The position numbers were made by a program, and so were the translations under genes. Below the pieces are notes generated by a model that did no database searches, had not been told where the DNA came from, and saw only the letters and a list, made by a program, of their open reading frames with translations. A stretch of DNA of 59,156 bases, taken from sequence record ON922918. The stretch is one strand, 5' to 3'. This DNA comes from Escherichia phage vB_EcoM_PD328. Shown here piece by piece: positions 5,747 through 49,681 of the stretch (the stretch's first letter is position 1; every line of letters starts with the position of its first letter).

Positions 5747-6025
5747 ATGAAGACTTTAATCTGCGCCATTATCCTTTCTATGACTGCTACGTTTGCTTAT
5801 GCGTCTGGCTCTTCCGGTGGTACTGGTGGTCCAGGTAATGGTGGAGCTGGTGGTTCATCATTAGGTGGGCATACTGGTGGAGTAAGCAACATTGAGCACC
5901 AGACTGTCATCTACGAAGGTACTACAGCCGGTAAAGCTAAAGCTGAATGGATGAAAGGTAAAAAAGTTAAACCGGATTGCTCACCAGCTATGAACCGCGT
6001 TGGTTGGTCCGAAGGTTGTAAATAA
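5747..6025 (+). CDS. small secreted protein of unknown function (candidate receptor-masking or superinfection-exclusion factor)
   Basis: 92 aa from the internal ATG (residue 11 of the track ORF); AAGGAG RBS upstream; N-terminal signal peptide MKTLICAIILSMTATFAYA; Gly-rich mature part with two C-terminal Cys; opposite strand to the flanking tail genes. Confidence 0.5.
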   Translation: MKTLICAIILSMTATFAYASGSSGGTGGPGNGGAGGSSLGGHTGGVSNIEHQTVIYEGTTAGKAKAEWMKGKKVKPDCSPAMNRVGWSEGCK

Positions 6026-6030
6026 TAAAT

Positions 6031-6055
6031 AAGGGCCTTTCGGCCCTTATTTTAT
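6031..6055. terminator. bidirectional rho-independent terminator
   Basis: AAGGGCC-TTTC-GGCCCTT hairpin followed by a T-run; between convergent stops at 6025 (+) and 6052 (-). Confidence 0.7.
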
Positions 6056-9000
6056 GAGTAAGTAAAGGATCCTGAACCTCTTGTTACAATCATTGTTGGA
6101 CTTTTTAACCATCTTTTAGTAGCTCCCTGCTTAAATACGATTTTTGCAGTTACAGTTGACGCAGTAACACCTCTAAAAGTAGCCATAACTGTACCAGACG
6201 TGGCCAACATACCACCTTCTGGATCACGAACAGATGTGCCTGCGGCTGCGCTTTTTGTAACACCATTCACGATGATCTCTACCCCTAGTAACGCCCCTGG
6301 ATAGTTAGGGACACCAGAAAGGTTAGCCATGACTGTAATGGTCTTAGTTGTATTAGCTGTATCCTTATACGTGATTGTACGCGACATGTCATATGTACTA
6401 CCTTCGCCGTATAAATCGTCAGCAACACCCATGTTGCATACATCACCAATGAAACTAGTAGCTTCTACAGTCCCTTTGAACTTACCGCTTGTTGCTTGTA
6501 TCTCACCAGTGAATCTACCGCCATTAGCGTATACTATACCTCTGACAGTTACGTTGTTTAATTCAGCATCCCCAGCTTTATTTAACTTCCAACCAGCAGA
6601 ACCAGCTACATAGTTGTTAGATTGAATATAGTTACCGATCTTAGCATTATCAATAGAGCCGTTCTCAATGAACGTCGCCTTCATAAACACTTGACCGTTC
6701 TTAACTGCAAATGCTAAATCCGCTGTGCTGTTAGTTGGGTTATAGATAGCAAAGTTATTAGCGTTCACCATAAAGTAGGATTGGATAGCTCCACCGGAAC
6801 CTTCCATACCCAACTGAATACCAGCAACGTATTTCTGACCTTTACTATCTACCTGGATCTTAGCGCCCCACTGAGCGTTAACGTTACCTTCAAGGTCTAC
6901 AACAGACTTACTGACTTCCTGTACGGTAGCTTTGACCACATCAATCTGTTGGCCGTTTGTCTCGATCAACTTACCTTGAGCATCTATTAACTGCCCCTGT
7001 TCATTGATTGTGACGCCTTGTTGCTGCACTTTACCGTCAACAAGGACTACGGATTGTTGTACTGTGTCAATCGTCTGAGTTAAGCGGCCCTCGGACGTCT
7101 CGATTTGGTTGTCCACATAACTCTTGACACCATCGCTAACGTTTCCAATCTCAGCCATAAGTTCTCTATAGGTGTTAGTACCTTTGAACTCTGTGTCAAT
7201 TTGTGGAATAAGGCCAGCAGCGTCAGTAAAGCATCTTGCAGCCACCTCTACAAAAGAAGACGAACCGAAGGCGTTAATCGCTCGCACGTACCAGTAATAA
7301 GTGTGGTCATTGAGCAGTCCTTCTGAAGTCCACGTTGTACCCATACCGGCACGGGTAGCCTGTTTCTCTACCACATCTACAGCGGCAGATGGTAATCTTG
7401 TTTCACCGGACGTCCAGAAATCATATTGTGTACTAACGTTCGCTAAATCTGCAGATTTTGGTTTCAGTGTTACTGCAAAGTAACCTTGCGTTACTTCAAC
7501 AGATGTAGGAGCAGAAGGTGCCTGAATGTTAAATTCAAGATATGCTTCTGGGCTGGTTGCACCAGTATATGCTACAGCTTTCACATGTGCTGTATAAGCA
7601 CCGCGAATAAGCCCCGTAATTCGCGTGCTCTGGCCCGGTACTTGCACCGTCAATACGGTAACACCATCTTTCTTAATTATTACGTTGTTGTACGCTACAG
7701 CCATTATATTTTGCCACGACAGTACACCCTGTACCACGTCGCTAATCTGTAGGACCTCATATTGTAGGTTCTGAGGTTGCATAGCGCCACCAGTAGGTAG
7801 ATCCACTAAATCCGGTCGGTCTACAGGTTTACCAATCGCATCGTCCCACAAGTCCGGGAAGTCTTGACGCACAGTTACAGTGACACCGCCTTTCGGGTCA
7901 AACTGCCACTTAATGACTCGCATCTCTACCTTGTTCATTCCAATATTAGGAATGTCAACGTAAACGTACATACCTGGACGGAAACGATACCCGCGCATGT
8001 TGCACGGTATTTCAATAGAACGTCCAATGCGTTTGCGTTTCAATGTCAAGTTAGACAGACGTTGTGCCTGGTATGGGCTTGTCACAAAACGATAGTCCAC
8101 GTCTTGTGTAATTTCCTGTCCATCTTGTTTTATCCATTCCGCAACACTTACAGGAGGAAAGTCTGCTTCCTGATAGTTTTGTAGAGGATCAATGTAAGTA
8201 CCTGTGATTGTATTGGTGCGTTCTTTAAAAGCCGTTTCAGGTGTAATTTTAATGTCGCCAGCAATACAACTCGTGTCAAGTGTTAGTTCAGGAGGACCAT
8301 AATATGCACCGACAAGAATACCATGTTTACCGCCAATATAAGTTAACTCTCCGCCACAAGCGTCGAGCATATCCTCCAGAATCTTAGATGGAGCTTCGTC
8401 AATATCAAACTCACCATTTATGGTGTAACGAGGTTCGAATGTATTGTCTGCGTTCCTTACACTTTCATCACAGATATTAGCAGCTTCTTTGAACTGGTCC
8501 CAAAGAATTGCATCATCAGAACGCTTTAAGTATACTCGCAAATAATCTAGAATGACTAGAGCTGCGTTATTGCTAAATACCATCTTACCAGTTCTAGGAT
8601 CTAATACTTTACGACCTTTCTTAAGGCATTTAACGTTAGGTAGACCGGACGGGAATTTTTCAGAATCGAAAACAAGGTTTAATTGCATCCAGCAAATACC
8701 TTTACCAATCATGTCGCTCTTCCATGATGGGCAACGATTCAACATGTCCTGACTAACTTTAGTAGGATTGTTATGTATTACATATGACGCTTTATCACCA
8801 AAACTTTCGATAGCGTCATCACCTAACCACACTTGTCCTACAGCCGTTAGTTCGTGGCCTGCCAATGCAAGAACCAACGTCAGCTTTTCATGGTTCTCAC
8901 CGTGTTTGTCTGGTTCCTGTACTCCCGGTTCCTCTTCCGCAAATACAAGTACACCACTAGATACAGTTGACCCATAAACTACTGTCCTGGATGCAGCAGC

Positions 9001-25432: not shown

Positions 25433-25675
25433 CTACATCTCTGTTTTAGGAATGTACATTATCTCCTGGATGTCTTGTCTCATTTGTTCGACCTTATTGA
25501 CCACATATACAGGTGGTGTTGAAGGTTGCAAATTTACCCTGTGTCTCTTGTGCATCTGATCAATGGCGATAGCACTGACTCCGATTTGTGTAAGTCCAAT
25601 CATCATATAGATGAAAAGCAGTCGTGGTTTCTTACACAATATAAGAAGATCATTGATGAAATGACGCATAATCAA
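25433..25675 (-). CDS. small membrane protein (lysis-associated, possible holin/antiholin)
   Basis: 80 aa with one predicted transmembrane segment (LLFIYMMIGLTQIGVSAIAI); adjacent to the lysis cassette. Confidence 0.3.
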   Translation of the reverse strand: MIMRHFINDLLILCKKPRLLFIYMMIGLTQIGVSAIAIDQMHKRHRVNLQPSTPPVYVVNKVEQMRQDIQEIMYIPKTEM

Positions 25676-25980
25676 CCTCTTTCCTTTTCTCGGTCATATG
25701 CTTGCGTTTTTCTCTGTAGAAACTTTAGCATGGTTCTTGAACCTGACCAAGATAACACGCCTATGAACGCCCCACTGAGCCCAAGTGGGACACCATGTTC
25801 CACGTTAATTACACCTATCAAGAAACCAAAGAATGCAGAAAAAGCACCCTCTTGAATGAAGGAGCTGAGTCTGAACCTTTCTTTAGCATCATGGGTTCTT
25901 GCAGCGTAGCCAAGGGAACCCCCTACCATCGCAATGGCAGTGAGAATAAAGACTATATTCCAATCCCAGTTCGGCGACAC
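25672..25980 (-). CDS. holin (putative)
   Basis: 102 aa with two to three hydrophobic transmembrane segments and a charged C-terminus; directly downstream of the endolysin gene. Confidence 0.45.
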   Translation of the reverse strand: MSPNWDWNIVFILTAIAMVGGSLGYAARTHDAKERFRLSSFIQEGAFSAFFGFLIGVINVEHGVPLGLSGAFIGVLSWSGSRTMLKFLQRKTQAYDREKERG

Positions 25981-25993
25981 TTATAACCCCTTA

Positions 25994-26428
25994 CTATGCC
26001 ATATGGATACCCGCGAGCAAGACTTCATCAGAATAAGGTTGCACACCGTTCTCATGTTTGATAATCGCCTTCACGATCGCAAGCATGAGCTTATCATCGG
26101 TCAATGAAATCGGCTGTTCTGCACCAACACCACAAGCCTTAGACACGGATTGAATATAGGCTTCAGTGTTATTTTCATTCGGCGGAGCCCAGCGTGAAAT
26201 AATTTCCCGTACAGTGTCAATCCCTTTATTACCGACGCGCTTCATCCCTTCGCGGTTCCGGTAGTTTAGTAGAATGCGCGCAATGGCGCGAATACCGTAT
26301 TTTACATCGATAAATTGACAGAAAGAACGATCAGTTCGTTTGTCTTCTGGAACAAGACCTTTCCAGTTATCACCCCAACGAATATTTCCCGGATTGTTAT
26401 TCCGGATACCTCGTGGTTGCACAGTCAT
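25994..26428 (-). CDS. endolysin (putative peptidoglycan hydrolase)
   Basis: 144 aa soluble protein between spanin and holin candidates; NNPGNIRW motif; function inferred mainly from cassette context. Confidence 0.45.
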   Translation of the reverse strand: MTVQPRGIRNNNPGNIRWGDNWKGLVPEDKRTDRSFCQFIDVKYGIRAIARILLNYRNREGMKRVGNKGIDTVREIISRWAPPNENNTEAYIQSVSKACGVGAEQPISLTDDKLMLAIVKAIIKHENGVQPYSDEVLLAGIHMA

Positions 26429-26519
26429 AAAAAAGCTCCATTCAGTTAAACCGAATAGAGCATAGTTGAATTATCACACGCACACAATCAATTATGTGCA
26501 ATTAGGATGGAACGTTTAG

Positions 26520-26864
26520 TTACGCAATCCGGCAAGGACTTTGCAGTTTATCACCGTTCTTTACGCGGATTTCGCATTGCATCATACTGTAGTTCGCACT
26601 GCTCGCCGGCAAGACGATACTTTTCAGCCTCTTCTGCCATTTGTCTGTATTCTGTGACGCTTTCTGAATACAGTTCGGTGAGCACACGGGCGATCTGGGC
26701 GGTTGTCTTGCTGTCGGGCTGAGGGCCGGTAGCGTCACCGAGGTACTTACGGATGGTTGTGATTTCGTTGTGCAACCTGTCATTAGTAGCACGATAATCA
26801 TTAAGATCGGCAACCAAAGACTCAATGCGAGATTGGTACTGGCGTTCGATAACGTCTTTCTCAT
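26520..26864 (-). CDS. o-spanin (Rz1-like outer-membrane lipoprotein), embedded in the i-spanin gene
   Basis: Alternative frame inside the i-spanin ORF; signal peptide ending in lipobox LMTGC; Pro-rich mature part with a C-terminal Cys. Confidence 0.6.
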   Translation of the reverse strand: MRKTLSNASTNLALSLWLPILMIIVLLMTGCTTKSQPSVSTSVTLPALSPTARQPPRSPVCSPNCIQKASQNTDKWQKRLKSIVLPASSANYSMMQCEIRVKNGDKLQSPCRIA

Positions 26865-27051
26865 ACGCTCTTCTTTTCTCCTCCTCGAAATCAATCGCTT
26901 TCTGAGTTTCTTTTTGGTACGACACACCGGCATCGAAACCCTCCTTTCTAGCTGTTTCTATGGCATTGTCATAAGCCCAGTTGGCTAGAATAACAATTAG
27001 GACAAGTGGTATCCAAGGTGCAACCAAACCGATTATTTTTCTAAGGAGCAT
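26551..27051 (-). CDS. i-spanin (Rz-like)
   Basis: 166 aa; N-terminal transmembrane segment (IIGLVAPWIPLVLIVILANW) followed by a charged coiled-coil periplasmic domain. Confidence 0.6.
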   Translation of the reverse strand: MLLRKIIGLVAPWIPLVLIVILANWAYDNAIETARKEGFDAGVSYQKETQKAIDFEEEKRRAYEKDVIERQYQSRIESLVADLNDYRATNDRLHNEITTIRKYLGDATGPQPDSKTTAQIARVLTELYSESVTEYRQMAEEAEKYRLAGEQCELQYDAMRNPRKER

Positions 27052-27260
27052 ACCTTCTCACCAATTCCCATAGACAAGTATTGAATCGCAAGAAGAAATG
27101 CTATAGCTTCCTTCGTATCCCCTAAGTCTTTAAGGGTCTTGAACGTATCTTCAAGTTGCTGCACGTACTTCTCGAATTGTGGTAAGGCATCAATCTCAGC
27201 AGCAGCTCCGCGCATATACACTCTTGCAGCCGCTAATTGTGCGTCAGAAGTATCACTCAT
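27033..27260 (-). CDS. hypothetical protein
   Basis: 75 aa ORF in the minus-strand early block. Confidence 0.3.
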   Translation of the reverse strand: MSDTSDAQLAAARVYMRGAAAEIDALPQFEKYVQQLEDTFKTLKDLGDTKEAIAFLLAIQYLSMGIGEKVCSLEK

Positions 27261-27472
27261 GATATTCTCCAGATTACACTATTTCGAATTTCATCATTCC
27301 AAACGTATTTCCCCTTCTCGCCATTTTTATAGGATGGAACAGAAAAAACGGAGGAACTTGGATATAGATCTGATGTTGTTAAGCGTATACGCTTACCGTC
27401 AAAAGGTCCACCAACACAAAGGAACAGACCAGTCTTAGGTTTCTTCAAAATGGTTCCTCCTCGTCTGTACAC
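27257..27472 (-). CDS. hypothetical protein
   Basis: 71 aa ORF overlapping its neighbours by 4 nt. Confidence 0.3.
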   Translation of the reverse strand: MYRRGGTILKKPKTGLFLCVGGPFDGKRIRLTTSDLYPSSSVFSVPSYKNGEKGKYVWNDEIRNSVIWRIS

Positions 27473-27939
27473 TGAGCCATTTTAAGAGTATAAGCTACGT
27501 CATAGAAGTCAACACCCTGACCACAGCTATCGCAGTAATGGCAGGCCAATCTCACAGCTTCTTCTGCGCCGCAACCTGCCGCCATTGTACCCATCAAGAA
27601 CTCAAACGCACTACCCTCGGCAATAAATTCGTTAGTGTCTGGTAGACCCAATTTACCATCGCCGTAGATAGGATACACGACAAGTTCCTGCGTCACTGCA
27701 ATACCATAACGGGAATCTGGATTCATATCCGAGAAAGGTTCTTTACGTCCACGAACCGTAGTTTTCAGATGTTCTACAATGTCATTTACAGGACGTAGTT
27801 TACCAGACATTGCAACAAGACACAGTCCAACCCCTGGAATATTGACAGTATGAACTTTATTCGTAGTTGTTGCAATATTACCCCATGTGACCTGACGATC
27901 CACAGCCAGTATACCATCACGATAAGCAATTGCGGTCAT
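27445..27939 (-). CDS. HslV/proteasome-beta-like Ntn-hydrolase peptidase (putative)
   Basis: Starts MT-AIAYRDGILAVDRQVTWGN, paralleling the HslV N-terminus (MTTIVSVRRNG...GDGQATLGN) with Thr as residue 2; later GSAFEF...GxGVDFY resembles the HslV GSGG region. Confidence 0.5.
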   Translation of the reverse strand: MTAIAYRDGILAVDRQVTWGNIATTTNKVHTVNIPGVGLCLVAMSGKLRPVNDIVEHLKTTVRGRKEPFSDMNPDSRYGIAVTQELVVYPIYGDGKLGLPDTNEFIAEGSAFEFLMGTMAAGCGAEEAVRLACHYCDSCGQGVDFYDVAYTLKMAQCTDEEEPF

Positions 27940-28289
27940 ATTAAACGCCCATATATGTGATAAATTTTATAAGCAGTGGAAAGACCAATATTGAATTCTC
28001 TCGCTGCAACCTGAAATCTATTCTCTTTACCAGTGTAATTTCTGAGAAATTGATAAATTTCCTCTTTATCCATGTGTCTGTTTCGCACAAGTGTTGGCGA
28101 CCAAAGCCGGCGCATTTCGAGCGTAGCCGCGAATCTTCGCTTGATCTGAGCTACTGTACCAACGTACCAATACTTTGCCCCATTTTGCCCAATAGCCGCG
28201 TGGACGCACCGCGGCGTACCTGTTTTAGCGAACTTGCGCTTTGCAAATTCACACGCGAGTTCCGCATTGTCAAAACGTTGCAAGCCCAT
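27936..28289 (-). CDS. hypothetical protein (possible DNA-binding)
   Basis: 117 aa basic protein; C-terminal segment (GLSTAYKIYHIYG) could form a helix-turn-helix. Confidence 0.3.
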   Translation of the reverse strand: MGLQRFDNAELACEFAKRKFAKTGTPRCVHAAIGQNGAKYWYVGTVAQIKRRFAATLEMRRLWSPTLVRNRHMDKEEIYQFLRNYTGKENRFQVAAREFNIGLSTAYKIYHIYGRLI

Positions 28290-28292
28290 AAA

Positions 28293-28733
28293 TCACCCCG
28301 GCAATATAATTTCGTAATCAATCAGGAAAGACCGCAGAGGATACGCCAGATCGTTACCCTCTGCAACGTGGTCATAGGAATAGTATTGTTTCCCTTGCAG
28401 ACCTTTACATGGGTCATATACCTTAACATCACCGAAGCGAGCGTCAATAATGATCTGATGGAAAAGTCCAGGTAGCTGCAAAGAGGGTACAGTCGCAAGA
28501 TACAAGCGCCCAGGTCGAATCTGGTGCATACCAGCAGTGATATGCGGCTGTGCAAAGACACCATGCTTATACAGATAGTTCGACACGTCAGTAAAACCAT
28601 GAATATAATCATTTGTGAACTCGTCATACACCTGCTCAGGGTCTTTGTCAAGAAGCATAGCAAGGCAGGTAGGGATGCAAGCCATTATGCTTTTCTGAGT
28701 TTTATGCTTGATTGGGTCATTGATAGTAATCAT
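28293..28733 (-). CDS. papain-like cysteine peptidase, C39-like (putative)
   Basis: N-terminal QKSIMACIPTCLAMLL resembles the C39 peptidase Q...C...CLAM active-site region; downstream His (HQIIIDARFGD) and Asp candidates. Confidence 0.4.
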   Translation of the reverse strand: MITINDPIKHKTQKSIMACIPTCLAMLLDKDPEQVYDEFTNDYIHGFTDVSNYLYKHGVFAQPHITAGMHQIRPGRLYLATVPSLQLPGLFHQIIIDARFGDVKVYDPCKGLQGKQYYSYDHVAEGNDLAYPLRSFLIDYEIILPG

Positions 28734-29071
28734 TAGAACACTTCCTTAAACAAATCAAATTTAACATGCTCGTAGATTTTATTCAGCTGAGTCAGCTTAC
28801 GAATAAATTCTTTACTGGTATTCTCGTCAATTGCACAGGTATCCGTCTGGATCTTCCATGTGTCGGAACGCAAGCGAAGCAGGAACGAACCGTTCGGGTA
28901 AACCGTCTTCGCTTCTGGCATATAGTGCAGAATACAGGATATCGTCCCTTCAGGTGGTATAAGAACAATATAAGTATCATTCACGTCGCTGTGACTAATA
29001 ATCCAACCGCTCTGCAACAAAGCATCCCGGAGCTGGCAATACATTTTCGGAATAACGATATCTTTGGCCAT
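28733..29071 (-). CDS. hypothetical protein
   Basis: 112 aa ORF, translationally coupled to neighbours. Confidence 0.3.
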   Translation of the reverse strand: MAKDIVIPKMYCQLRDALLQSGWIISHSDVNDTYIVLIPPEGTISCILHYMPEAKTVYPNGSFLLRLRSDTWKIQTDTCAIDENTSKEFIRKLTQLNKIYEHVKFDLFKEVF

Positions 29072-29436
29072 TATTGTACTTCCACAATTAATAATTCACC
29101 ATGACGTACACGAGCAAGTTCGTATAAATCTTGTTTCTGCGCAATGTCCAATTGGCAATCAAGGATTGCAATATCACAATGGAAGCCACTCGTACGAATG
29201 ACAGTGTCTTCATATGAGGCTTTGTGATAAGAAACCAAACGAATGTGGAAACGATCAAACTGTACTACGGACGACTCACGCGACAGTTGCACACAGCGAA
29301 CGAATTCAGGATCTTCACGCAACACTTCTTCGAGCTGGCGGCGATAATCATTATTCGGACACAAAGTAAAAGCGATGCGATCGTCTTTCAACTGTGGCCT
29401 CAACATAGACCAGGCTTTAACTATATTCTCGTTCAT
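29071..29436 (-). CDS. hypothetical protein (first gene of the minus-strand early operon)
   Basis: 121 aa ORF adjacent to the divergent control region. Confidence 0.3.
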   Translation of the reverse strand: MNENIVKAWSMLRPQLKDDRIAFTLCPNNDYRRQLEEVLREDPEFVRCVQLSRESSVVQFDRFHIRLVSYHKASYEDTVIRTSGFHCDIAILDCQLDIAQKQDLYELARVRHGELLIVEVQ

Positions 29437-29941
29437 ATAACCCCCTTTAACGTTAACGGAATAACTATAGCAGGATACGCAAGTTGATTAACATACGTGA
29501 TCGCAACAATTAATAACCACAGTTAGTCGTCTCGTGTGCTTTAATTCATGATGCCGCAAATCAGCTACGCATACCGGCAAACCGAATATTGTAATCGTCT
29601 CTCGAGTATTTACATACGGAACTAGCTTCATACGAACAATATAGGACAGGTGAGGTGGGGATACAAAGTGTCTAGTGACGAGATAATCTACAAACGATGA
29701 ATCCTTGGCAGAGATCTAAGAGCCGCCCCGCGGCGTTACTATAACGTCCCGTGATCGTCAGTGAGGTGATTGTTACGTCATGTGACTGTCGCGCGCTCTA
29801 TTGTAACGTTGTTTATTATTACACGCGTTATTATTTTTTATTTGATTAGTGTGCTATCTATCGCATGACTATATTATACCGTCCAGTATAATTACATCTG
29901 TTACTATCTACCTGCCCACTATGTGCTGTCTATGTATGTGC

Positions 29942-30008
29942 TACCTGGTATTTCCTGCGCGTGCTGTTACCTGGTATTTTCGACACGCTCGCGCTACCTG
30001 GTATTTCC
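29942..30008. repeat. three direct repeats of TACCTGGTATTTYC in the divergent intergenic region
   Basis: Copies at about 29942, 29968 and 29995 with 26-27 bp periodicity, each preceded by GTGCT. Confidence 0.6.
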
Positions 30009-30089
30009 GGCACACCGTCTACCGTATAGTCCCGGATGTTATTATTATGAAACACAACTAAAAAAGTTCTAAAATAATGCAGATAATAG

Positions 30090-39769: not shown

Positions 39770-40048
39770 ATGTCCAGTTACAATCTAGCAGCTATTAAAA
39801 TTGTGTACGGCGCTCTATACCAGGATGAAGAATTCCCAGGCATTGAGCAGGCAATTAAAAGAATCAAGTCCAATCGTGTTGACTCGGAACAACTGTTCGC
39901 CTATGCTTTAGCCATAAGTAAGAACGAGGTCCGTCCTTACTATGAAACGCTGTCACGCCAGTTACGAAGTGTAATAGAAGAACGTGACTTAATGCGGCAC
40001 TGTGGATACACCTTCTTAACCGGTAGAGCCATACGTGTCAGCAAATAA
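39770..40048 (+). CDS. hypothetical protein
   Basis: 92 aa ORF. Confidence 0.35.
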   Translation: MSSYNLAAIKIVYGALYQDEEFPGIEQAIKRIKSNRVDSEQLFAYALAISKNEVRPYYETLSRQLRSVIEERDLMRHCGYTFLTGRAIRVSK

Positions 40049-47677: not shown

Positions 47678-49681
47678 ATGTTCAAACTACGTGATTATCA
47701 GCAAGAAGCTGTAAATAGTACATTGCGCTATTTTATCAAGCATGGTGAAAAGTCAGGAAATCCTGTTATCTTGTTGCCTACAGGGACTGGTAAGTCCCTT
47801 GTAATTGCTGGTCTATTAAAGACAATTCATGATAATTGGGGTAGTACCCGCATGATGGTAATTACTCACGTAAAAGAATTGATAGACCAGAACCACGATA
47901 AGTTCAAGAAGTTATGGCCTGAAGCACCGACTGGTATTTATAGTGCTGGTATGGGTCGCAAGGATAAGAACGCAATGATAACGTTCGCAGGTATTCAGTC
48001 TGTTGCAAAACAAGCTAAATACTTTGAGGACGTTGATATTATTATAGTGGACGAATGTGACCTTATTAGTCCAAATCAGCAAACAAGTTATCAGAAGTTC
48101 TTTGCACATATCCGTGAAAAGAACCCATATCTAAAGATTATCGGTCTTACTGCTACAAGCTGGCGTCTTGGTTTTGGTTCTATTATCAAAGATGACTATG
48201 CTCCTAATGCTCTATTTGATGAAATCGTATTTAACGCGTGTACTGTAGAGTGCTTCAACTGGTTTATTGATGAAGGTTATCTGGTTCCATTAGTACCACG
48301 TAAAACAAAGAAAGAGTATGATGTAAGTGGTGTTCATACTCGAGGCGGTGAGTTCATTGAAAGTGAACTTCAGAAGGTTGTAAACGACCCTGATGTAACA
48401 CGCCATTTGTTAGATGATGCGATTAGTATTGCGGAAGAAGAGGGCAGAATGAGTTGGCTTATCTTTTGTGCTGGTGTAGACCATGCAAAAGATGTAAAAG
48501 ACTATCTCAATGAACGCGGTATTAGTTGCGAAGTTGTAACTGGTGATACACCGAAAGCCTTGCGTGACCAGTACCTCATTGACTTTAAAGCTGGTCGTTT
48601 GCAGGCAATAGCGAACAACAACGTATTGACCACAGGCTTTGACCATCCTGGTCTTGACTTGATAATTGGTATGCGCCCGTCCCAATCTTCCCGCTTATGG
48701 GTTCAGATGCTTGGACGTGGTACTCGACCTGATTATGCTGATGGTTTTGATTTGACCACAACGGAAGGTCGTTTGCAAGCTATCTCCGCTTCGCATAAAC
48801 AGAACTGTCTTGTACTAGACTATGCGGGTAATACAAGACGTCTTGGACCTATTAACGACCCTGTAATTCCTAAGCGTCCAGGGCAGAAAGGAAAGTCCGC
48901 TGCACCTGTTAAAGAATGCCCGGTATGTAAAACCTGGAACCATGCGTCGGTTCGCTATTGTGGTGGGTTAAAACCATTCGATACAAGCAGTATGTCCCAT
49001 GAAGAAATACTCTATCTTCAAGGATTAGGGTATACCATTACAAATAATAAAGCGTGTCGTGCTGGTTATTGCGGTCATGAGTTTACTTTTGAGAAGAAAC
49101 TGATGGCGAGTGCTAGTACGAAAGCTATTATCAAGAATGATTTACCAGTCACTGAGGTATTGAAAGTTGATATGGTGAGTTACTATCGTCATGAGAACAG
49201 GGGTGACCGTTCTAAGCCACCAACACTTCGTGTCGATTATCTTTGTGGCTCACAAACTATTCAACAATATATTTGTCTGTTCCATACTGGCTTTGCAGGC
49301 AAGAAAGCGCGTAACTGGTGGCGCGAGCATTGCAGCTTGGCAATCCCAGCCAACATTGACGAAGCTCTTAATGTGGTCAGCCAACTCCGTGTACCGACGC
49401 ACATCTATGTCAACTTGAAGGGTAAGTTCCCTGAAGTGTTGAATAGTTGTTATGACGGTAGTGAGTTTGGTAAGAAAGAAGCAACTAATGAACGTCCGGT
49501 TGTACAAATCGCGGCAATGAATGGCTTGTCCCAGTTTGGTGGAAGTTATACGAATAAGTTTGATGAAGACGAGCAGACTGATTCTCGTACGACAGTGTTG
49601 CATTCTACGTCTAATCAACCTATTCTTACTGGTAACGGTAAAGAGCTACCACCAGATTTTGATGACGACATTCCATTTTGA
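47678..49681 (+). CDS. SF2 DEAD/DEAH-box-type helicase with SSB-like C-terminal tail
   Basis: Walker A LPTGTGKS, motif II VDECDL, helicase C-domain motifs; protein ends ...LPPDFDDDIPF, identical to the conserved C-terminal tip of E. coli SSB. Confidence 0.7.
   Translation: MFKLRDYQQEAVNSTLRYFIKHGEKSGNPVILLPTGTGKSLVIAGLLKTIHDNWGSTRMMVITHVKELIDQNHDKFKKLWPEAPTGIYSAGMGRKDKNAMITFAGIQSVAKQAKYFEDVDIIIVDECDLISPNQQTSYQKFFAHIREKNPYLKIIGLTATSWRLGFGSIIKDDYAPNALFDEIVFNACTVECFNWFIDEGYLVPLVPRKTKKEYDVSGVHTRGGEFIESELQKVVNDPDVTRHLLDDAISIAEEEGRMSWLIFCAGVDHAKDVKDYLNERGISCEVVTGDTPKALRDQYLIDFKAGRLQAIANNNVLTTGFDHPGLDLIIGMRPSQSSRLWVQMLGRGTRPDYADGFDLTTTEGRLQAISASHKQNCLVLDYAGNTRRLGPINDPVIPKRPGQKGKSAAPVKECPVCKTWNHASVRYCGGLKPFDTSSMSHEEILYLQGLGYTITNNKACRAGYCGHEFTFEKKLMASASTKAIIKNDLPVTEVLKVDMVSYYRHENRGDRSKPPTLRVDYLCGSQTIQQYICLFHTGFAGKKARNWWREHCSLAIPANIDEALNVVSQLRVPTHIYVNLKGKFPEVLNSCYDGSEFGKKEATNERPVVQIAAMNGLSQFGGSYTNKFDEDEQTDSRTTVLHSTSNQPILTGNGKELPPDFDDDIPF

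Follow-up and report, generated by a model that had tools for sequence, protein, structure and literature searches.

The 59,156-nucleotide stretch of Escherichia phage vB_EcoM_PD328 considered here (sequence record ON922918; hereafter the window) belongs to a Nonagvirus (9g-like, Queuovirinae) and encodes on its minus strand, at 27445..27939, a 164-residue protein that is a proteasome-beta/HslV-type N-terminal nucleophile (Ntn) hydrolase of the PPH family of phage mini-proteasome homologues. The protein is probably an N-terminal-threonine peptidase that matures by the removal of methionine only, works independently of HslU, is likely a homo-oligomer and acts on specific substrates. Family identity and the conservation of the active site are established by the comparisons described below, and activity, assembly and substrate are what we infer. 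The original prediction, made from the letters of the DNA, had proposed an HslV/proteasome-beta-like Ntn hydrolase at exactly these coordinates without giving the strand, and it is partly supported: the similarity is significant in PHROGs, with family profiles, with hhalign and in the structure model, and the threonine that follows the initiator methionine is kept.

Assignment to the PPH family

The protein was examined with Pfam, NCBIfam, phmmer against the PDB, PHROGs, family profiles, hhalign and AlphaFold (AF2), and its kinship to the proteasome and HslV is visible only through family profiles and structure. Pfam returned no proteasome or HslV match even at E <= 10 (the sole match, at E = 0.18, is irrelevant), the HslV models of NCBIfam did not match, a phmmer single-sequence search of the PDB retrieved nothing, and a precomputed Pfam domain was found in 0 of 36 homologues. 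The similarity, missed by the curated Pfam and NCBIfam models, is recovered by PHROGs, in which phrog_1040 ('peptidase HslV family') matches the protein with E = 7e-35, and by family profiles searched against the PDB. A profile built from 21 homologues retrieved, almost without exception, beta subunits of the proteasome, HslV, BPH (Betaproteobacteria proteasome homologue) and Anbu, each weakly, and a diverse profile of 138 relatives retrieved HslV as its best match (E = 3.6e-7, near full length) among 140 matches at E <= 0.01, the best 60 of these 140 being all HslV, 20S beta subunits or BPH. Alignment of the family with Escherichia coli HslV by hhalign gave a probability of 95.4%, and the AlphaFold model has a predicted local distance difference test score (pLDDT) of 92.5 and a predicted template modelling score (pTM) of 0.87; HslV is the top solved relative both by sequence profile and by fold. 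The profiles, hhalign and this confident model therefore identify the fold as that of the T1 Ntn hydrolases.

The PPH family, with WP_042125023.1 as its published reference sequence, was described by Fuchs et al. (2021) as proteins of ~140 residues from Caudovirales and prophages that fall into group I together with HslV and BPH, possess a Thr1/Asp17/Lys33/Gly47 core and no propeptide, and share the absence of helix H2 with no other group than their relative RPC; 324 nr90 sequences were counted. The window gene belongs to this family, the assignment having been made by match to the published description. The likeness comprises a single-domain, proteasome-like S1-S11 beta core of ~140-160 residues, the Thr/Ser1, Asp17, Lys33 and oxyanion Gly47 positions, all of which are matched, the absence of both H2 and a propeptide, the occurrence in tailed phages and prophages of Proteobacteria, and a closest relationship to HslV and BPH. 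The relatives collected here stem from Queuovirinae, Aeromonas, Erwinia, Caulobacter and Sinorhizobium phages and from Alphaproteobacteria and Pseudomonas genomes. In contrast to the published description, in which group I is devoid of the C-terminal S12/H5 elements, the Nonagvirus-clade protein is 164 residues long and carries one further helix at its C-terminus (148-160), followed by an acidic ...EEEPF tip, and this helix and tail are absent from typical members of 145 residues. Since it has no extra C-terminal domain, the Nonagvirus protein is not an RPC.

Conservation of the active site

The protein, MTAIAYRDGILAVDRQVTWGN...AEGSAFEF...CTDEEEPF (164 residues; stop codon at 27445..27447), begins with M-T-A-I-A-Y-R-D-G. 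Its ATG (27939..27937) is the earliest possible start downstream of an in-frame stop codon and therefore leaves no room for a propeptide; the Thr2 codon follows directly (both codons together, 27934..27939), so that Thr2 would become the N-terminal nucleophile after loss of the methionine. Among the fetched relatives, 168 of 182 start with MT, and the family profile aligns from residue 1 in nearly all of them. As far as reading frames and alignments show, PPH is made without a propeptide.

Conservation was counted over an alignment of 138 relatives whose identity goes down to ~25%. At position 2, Thr is found in 134/138 and Ser in 4/138, in line with the HslV-type N-terminus originally proposed, with the Thr after Met as nucleophile, and Asp14, Lys28, Gly46, Gly109, Gly9 and Gly122 are invariant (138/138). 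In the hhalign register, Asp14 (codon at 27898..27900, on the minus strand like every feature of this gene) corresponds to Asp17 of HslV and 20S beta subunits, Lys28 (27856..27858) to Lys33, Gly46 (27802..27804) to Gly48 of HslV, and Gly109-Ser110 (27610..27615) to Gly123-Ser124 of HslV, or Gly128-Ser129 of the 20S proteasome. We take HslV Gly48 to be the equivalent of the oxyanion-hole Gly47 of 20S beta subunits, from our own reading of the G-G-x-A-D motif. By alignment, the places of the Thr1/Asp17/Lys33/Gly47 catalytic set are taken by Thr2, Asp14, Lys28 and Gly46, which are invariant family-wide except for the Thr/Ser alternation at position 2. The resemblance continues in the motif D14-x-Q16-x-T18-x-G20-N21, which aligns with D17-G-Q-A-T-L-G-N of E. 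coli HslV. The 'GSG-like' region of the original prediction actually reads A-E-G109-S110-A, aligned with I-G123-S124-G of HslV; the serine is thus kept in this protein, but in the family only the glycine is invariant, position 110 being Ser in 71/138 relatives (51%), Ala in 33 and Cys in 12.

The strongest family signature is found outside the catalytic set, in residues 117-129 (G-T-M-A-A-G-C-G-A-E-E-A-V, 27553..27591; consensus GAMAAGASAEEAV), which belong to helices H3/H4, modelled at 112-120 and 125-135. Among the homologues, G117, A118, G122, A123, A125, A128 and V129 are at least 92% conserved.

Predicted loss of helix H2 and the HslU interface

Helix H2 of HslV and the proteasome is absent from the modelled PPH protein, in which residues 59-76 (27712..27765) form a loop instead. 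In the AF2 secondary structure a helix (48-58) follows strand S4 and no further helix precedes the strand at 77-83, the loop itself being confidently modelled (block pLDDT 89-95), and hhalign places a 14-residue gap in PPH opposite HslV residues 67-80.

It has been reported for HslV that the C-terminal tail of HslU docks in inter-subunit pockets (Phe54, Phe57, Gln114, with contacts to Ala79 and Lys80; PMC6429459), and that Arg86, Arg89 and Lys90 are located at the HslU-responsive pore (PMC5777263). In the hhalign register, which is not certain at ~20% identity, F54, F57 and Q114 correspond to N52, V55 and L99 of PPH, A79 and K80 are deleted, and the pore residues R86, R89 and K90 correspond to M72, D75 and S76. 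No HslU-like ATPase is annotated over 50 kb of phage SE1, which is 94% identical, or near PPH in the window. The pairing with host HslU that had been suggested for this protein is therefore disfavoured, because H2 is missing, all documented pocket and pore residues are replaced or deleted, and no HslU-like gene is annotated. When compared as a whole with HslV (ClpQ), the Nonagvirus PPH shares the N-terminal Thr and the equivalents of Asp17, Lys33 and Gly-Ser124, whereas it is only ~18-20% identical, has a 9-residue deletion between H3 and H4 in addition to that of H2, does not keep the residues of the HslU-tail pocket and pore, is missed by curated models and has no annotated hslU partner gene.

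This has consequences for annotation. The RefSeq records of SE1, JenP1, JenK1, JenP2 and 9g label the PPH orthologue 'peptidase HslV family', and other records use 'proteasome subunit alpha type-2', 'putative protease' or 'ATP-dependent protease HslV'. The identification of the window gene is thus correct but already known, since the family is published and RefSeq orthologues are labelled. Labels of the type 'peptidase HslV family / ATP-dependent protease HslV' nevertheless overstate the case, because PPH is devoid of the HslU interface, and the protein should not be assumed to be ATP-dependent in genome annotation. In another record, that of Escherichia phage CSP1C (PQ202980.1, 5819..6726), product names look shifted or unreliable: the PPH ORF (open reading frame; 6001..6465) is a 'hypothetical protein', its 86-residue downstream neighbour is the 'ATP-dependent protease subunit HslV', and a 61-residue ORF upstream of PPH is named 'cysteine protease'.

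Proposed mode of action

In the mechanism that we consider probable, host methionine aminopeptidase would remove Met1 and expose the Thr nucleophile, as in E. coli HslV. The processed protein would be an active threonine peptidase without HslU, probably a homo-oligomer formed through the conserved H3/H4 surface, and it would cut one specific protein of the phage or host, or a few such proteins, instead of carrying out bulk degradation; the flexible, acidic C-terminus of Nonagvirus-clade members (...EEEPF) could act as a docking tip. A precedent for independence from HslU is BPH, a descendant of HslV that lost the HslU-contact residues and has no ATPase partner. BPH differs from PPH in being cellular and larger (~185-200 residues), in keeping H1 and H2 and in having a long acidic pore loop, and its heptameric double ring has been solved (PDB 5ovs, 5ovu), whereas for PPH only sequence and a monomer model are available.

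Some points weigh against a PPH peptidase of this kind. The equivalent of Ser129/Ser124 is Ser in only 51% of PPH members, and the ~20% identity makes the register of the alignment with HslV uncertain at the level of single interface residues. Furthermore, a literature search brought up passing mentions of PPH and phage 'HslV' genes but neither an experimental paper nor a biochemical activity for a PPH member, and BPH is the nearest characterised ATPase-less relative; because BPH is inert on standard substrates, PPH activity may need a specific substrate or cofactor.

Operon position and expression

The genome, which is ~94% identical to that of Salmonella phage SE1 over the PPH region, is organized in two divergent arms. 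The plus-strand arm starts at ~30.2 kb and carries replication and queuosine/archaeosine-type genes. The minus-strand arm is read through five small genes (29436 to 27936), PPH, two further small genes, spanin, endolysin, holin and small terminase (TerS), and continues with large terminase (TerL), portal, scaffold, capsid and tail genes. PPH is therefore co-directional with and upstream of the lysis, terminase, portal, scaffold and capsid genes, with ~6 kb of lysis and packaging genes between it and the scaffold gene. The head module contains the portal (phrog_145), scaffold (phrog_206) and major capsid protein (MCP; phrog_247) genes, and no canonical prohead protease is found among the head-module genes of the window, as had been noted originally for the surroundings of the scaffold gene.

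The PPH start overlaps the stop codon of the preceding ORF by 4 nt (ATGA) and the downstream ORF overlaps the PPH 3' end, so that PPH is part of a closely packed operon (29436..27033). Immediately upstream, an ORF (27936..28289, minus strand, 117 residues) matches phrog_17085, of unknown function, and has no Pfam match. Two genes upstream of PPH, at 28293..28733 on the minus strand, a protein of 146 residues appears to be a second, putative peptidase of the operon, of papain-like type: it displays invariant Q13-x5-C19, H92 and D97/D107, is confidently modelled by AF2 (pLDDT 93.3), and the best-scoring structures in Foldseek belong without exception to the papain clan (Josephin, AvrPphB, C39 domains, staphopain), if at weak scores (E ~3e-3). 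This family is narrow, being confined to a Queuovirinae-like clade with contigs of ~60 kb. The PADLOC defence library gave no meaningful match for any gene of the PPH operon. The gene order around PPH is kept in the Seuratvirus-type phages examined, at ~32% identity of PPH, and PPH thus looks like a conserved gene of the subfamily; in all Nonagvirus and Seuratvirus records examined, it occupies the same operon position, a short way upstream of the lysis cassette and the packaging genes.

The location of PPH in an 'early block', as originally proposed, is doubtful. The authors of the phage 9g study name the whole minus-strand arm the late region, so that an early block is not established, and the arm is shared with lysis and head genes, though the divergent control region is only ~1.5 kb from PPH. 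A scan for promoters and terminators between 25.3 and 30.3 kb gave counts at chance level, which therefore cannot settle early versus late expression. A strong hairpin with a 12-bp stem, followed by TTTTTT (26435..26461, minus strand), separates the spanin gene (26551..27051) from the endolysin gene (25994..26428) and may terminate a transcription unit that runs leftward and includes PPH. The divergent intergenic region contains three direct repeats of 19 nt (GCTACCTGGTATTTCC-GC) that follow each other with a pitch of 26-27 nt (29940..30011, plus strand); their exact core TACCTGGTATTTYC is confined within the window to this region, and the repeats are candidates for operator or iteron sites in the control of the PPH operon.

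Size and neighbourhoods of the wider family

A PPH profile search retrieved 8,844 cluster representatives (50% identity) at E <= 1e-3 and 4,534 at E <= 1e-10; the PPH/RPC family is thus far larger than the 324 nr90 sequences published in 2021. Family size, synteny, the enrichment of certain neighbours and the acidic tip of the Nonagvirus clade are the new elements of the present analysis. Several PPH/RPC members carry C-terminal extensions of 60-250 residues, and in the longer RPC-like relatives (209-397 residues) these extensions have no Pfam domain and therefore give no hint of function.

Neighbourhoods were surveyed at 84 PPH loci from viral contigs, genomes and assemblies, which de-replication at 60% identity reduced to 54 informative loci. 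BLAST clustering of 1,514 neighbour proteins revealed no conserved partner gene that accompanies PPH generally. The commonest large neighbours over the 84 loci are genes for the large terminase, portal, major head/capsid, scaffold and adaptor proteins. TerL, portal or MCP lies within 3 genes of PPH at 19/54 loci and within ~7 kb at 31/54, counts that are lower bounds, against a rough null of 11-15% for the former distance (p ~2e-6 to 2e-4, the null being crude); at ~40% of loci no head or packaging gene is near PPH. Among the recurrent arrangements is TerL-PPH-portal, as in the curated phage phiM5 and two further loci (L047, L048), and a second one places PPH directly upstream of TerL. The order connector-scaffold-PPH-capsid is found in two T7-like contigs (L071, L064) and capsid-PPH-adaptor in another locus (L062), whereas PEi21 has PPH in a small-gene cassette of reverse orientation within the tail region. 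In phiM5's virion proteome notes, portal, scaffold and capsid are listed and PPH is not, the scaffold being found in particles and not removed. Weak matches to phrog_595 ('head maturation protease') also occur near PPH, and closer inspection of one of them revealed an SPP1-gp7-like head-morphogenesis protein and not a protease. In a metagenomic phage contig (L010, 7432..8435), PPH lies two genes downstream of an Acb2/Tad1 hairpin-domain gene, whose family, PF24729, is that of the anti-CBASS/anti-Thoeris sponges.

PPH is thus a very large phage family, with thousands of clusters. Several close relatives in the analysis were isolated on E. coli K-12, and Nonagviruses, which grow on this host, are therefore probably the most tractable PPH system, in which the function of the family could be approached.

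An acidic C-terminal tip in the Nonagvirus clade

The last six residues of the Nonagvirus protein, D-E-E-E-P-F (27448..27465), follow helix 148-160 and are disordered (pLDDT < 50 at residues 161-164). Members of the Nonagvirus clade conserve the terminal E-E-[EK]-P-F, and four diverged sublineages again end in P-F or P-W; the acidic tip is absent from typical 145-residue PPHs and only partly kept in Seuratvirus copies. The sole other ORF of the window that ends in Pro-Phe encodes a 667-residue protein (47678..49681, plus strand; tip codons 49655..49678), called 'DNA helicase' in phage SE1, that ends in ...LPPDFDDDIPF. Its last 8 residues, DFDDDIPF, are those of the tip of the E. coli single-stranded DNA-binding protein (SSB; ...PPMDFDDDIPF), which is a docking motif for many DNA-metabolism proteins. 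Judged from this identity, the helicase looks like a case of mimicry of the SSB docking motif; the SSB-like protein of the phage itself (45738..46664) does not present an SSB-type tip. The PPH tip, DEEEPF, resembles the DDDIPF of SSB without being the same, and in the Nonagvirus clade it may be a docking motif or an SSB-tip-like address label for the protease. Outside this clade, where Seuratvirus copies keep the tip only in part, the idea is unsupported.

Alternative explanations

Four other explanations can be ranked by likelihood in the order head or packaging maturation, host-directed action, a non-proteolytic or inert protein, and an HslU-dependent core. The foremost of them, although unlikely, is that PPH is a head-maturation or scaffold-removal protease that acts late, in or beside the proheads of phages without a canonical prohead protease. 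The recurrence of terminase, portal, major head, scaffold and adaptor genes as neighbours across the 84 loci argues for it, as do the 19/54 loci with TerL, portal or MCP within 3 genes, PPH genes that lie between scaffold and capsid, capsid and adaptor, or TerL and portal, and a window head module that lacks a protease and shares its strand with PPH. Slightly less likely again is the bolder form of this idea, in which PPH would be a fourth, Ntn-type class of phage morphogenetic protease, namely a threonine peptidase acting during packaging or head assembly in phages without a canonical prohead protease; if true, it would trim or remove, for instance, scaffold or portal- or terminase-associated proteins, and this role would explain the repeated TerL-portal and scaffold-capsid placement in unrelated phage architectures. 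The canonical prohead proteases (HK97 gp4/T4 gp21, ClpP/S49) are likewise small phage peptidases, and some PPH genes share their slot between portal or scaffold and capsid genes. However, canonical enzymes have folds unrelated to PPH and use serine catalysis, and all known prohead proteases have folds other than the T1 Ntn fold of PPH, whose genes are moreover variably placed. In the window itself, PPH is not between portal and capsid or scaffold genes but ~6 kb upstream, parted from the scaffold gene by lysis and packaging genes. PPH was also not detected in the virion proteome of phiM5, the only one available, in which the scaffold is retained, the PEi21 gene lies in its tail-region cassette, and the ~40% of loci devoid of nearby head or packaging genes, together with the roughness of the null, temper the enrichment. 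Finally, T7-like and LUZ24-like phages generally build their heads without a protease, so that PPH looks accessory there.

Less probable than either is that PPH is a host-directed or takeover protease, expressed from the leftward operon and addressed by its SSB-tip-like acidic Pro-Phe C-terminus to targets such as binders of SSB-type tails or a factor in host defence or stress. In keeping with this picture, the ...E-E-[EK]-P-F tip is conserved and disordered and P-F/P-W recurs in diverged lineages, and since the helicase ends in the very tip of E. coli SSB, this phage appears to use that docking code; PPH further lies ~1.5 kb from the divergent intergenic region, amid small unknown genes and near a second putative peptidase, and one relative stands beside an Acb2/Tad1-like gene. 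The tip is, however, absent from typical 145-residue members and not cleanly kept in Seuratvirus, DEEEPF differs from DDDIPF, PADLOC revealed no similarity to known defence components, and much of the wider family resides in late structural modules. That PPH is in practice not a protease at all, but a connectase-like transpeptidase or ligase, an amidase with a non-protein substrate, or a keeper of the fold with a structural or regulatory role, is more doubtful still, even though connectase shows the same fold at work in a ligase with sequence specificity, BPH does not act on standard substrates, conservation of the Ser129 equivalent is poor, and PPH is unusually small, with a loss of H2 that may be incompatible with classical rings; the invariant catalytic positions described above are those of a peptidase. 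Least probable is that PPH provides an alternative proteolytic core whose rings dock on the HslU of E. coli and redirect ATP-dependent proteolysis. In favour of this, no solved relative ranks above HslV by profile or fold, the D-x-Q-x-T-x-G-N stretch resembles HslV and the host carries hslVU; against this stand the deletion of H2, the replacement or deletion of every residue of the C-tail pocket and the pore, the failure of the Pfam proteasome and NCBIfam HslV models to match, and the clustering of Fuchs et al., in which PPH radiates from BPH, itself no longer dependent on HslU.

Other genes of the window

The lysis cassette downstream of PPH (25672..27051, minus strand) can be recognised in full, with a holin (PF16083, 25672..25980), an endolysin (phrog_873, 25994..26428) and an Rz-like i-spanin (26551..27051); a further ORF (26520..26933), overlapping and out of frame, contains a lipobox-like LLMTGC and is the likely o-spanin. 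In the 2014 phage 9g paper, a complete lysis module could not be identified. In the replication arm, a 92-residue ORF (39770..40048, plus strand) matches phrog_17339, labelled 'protease', with E = 5e-63.

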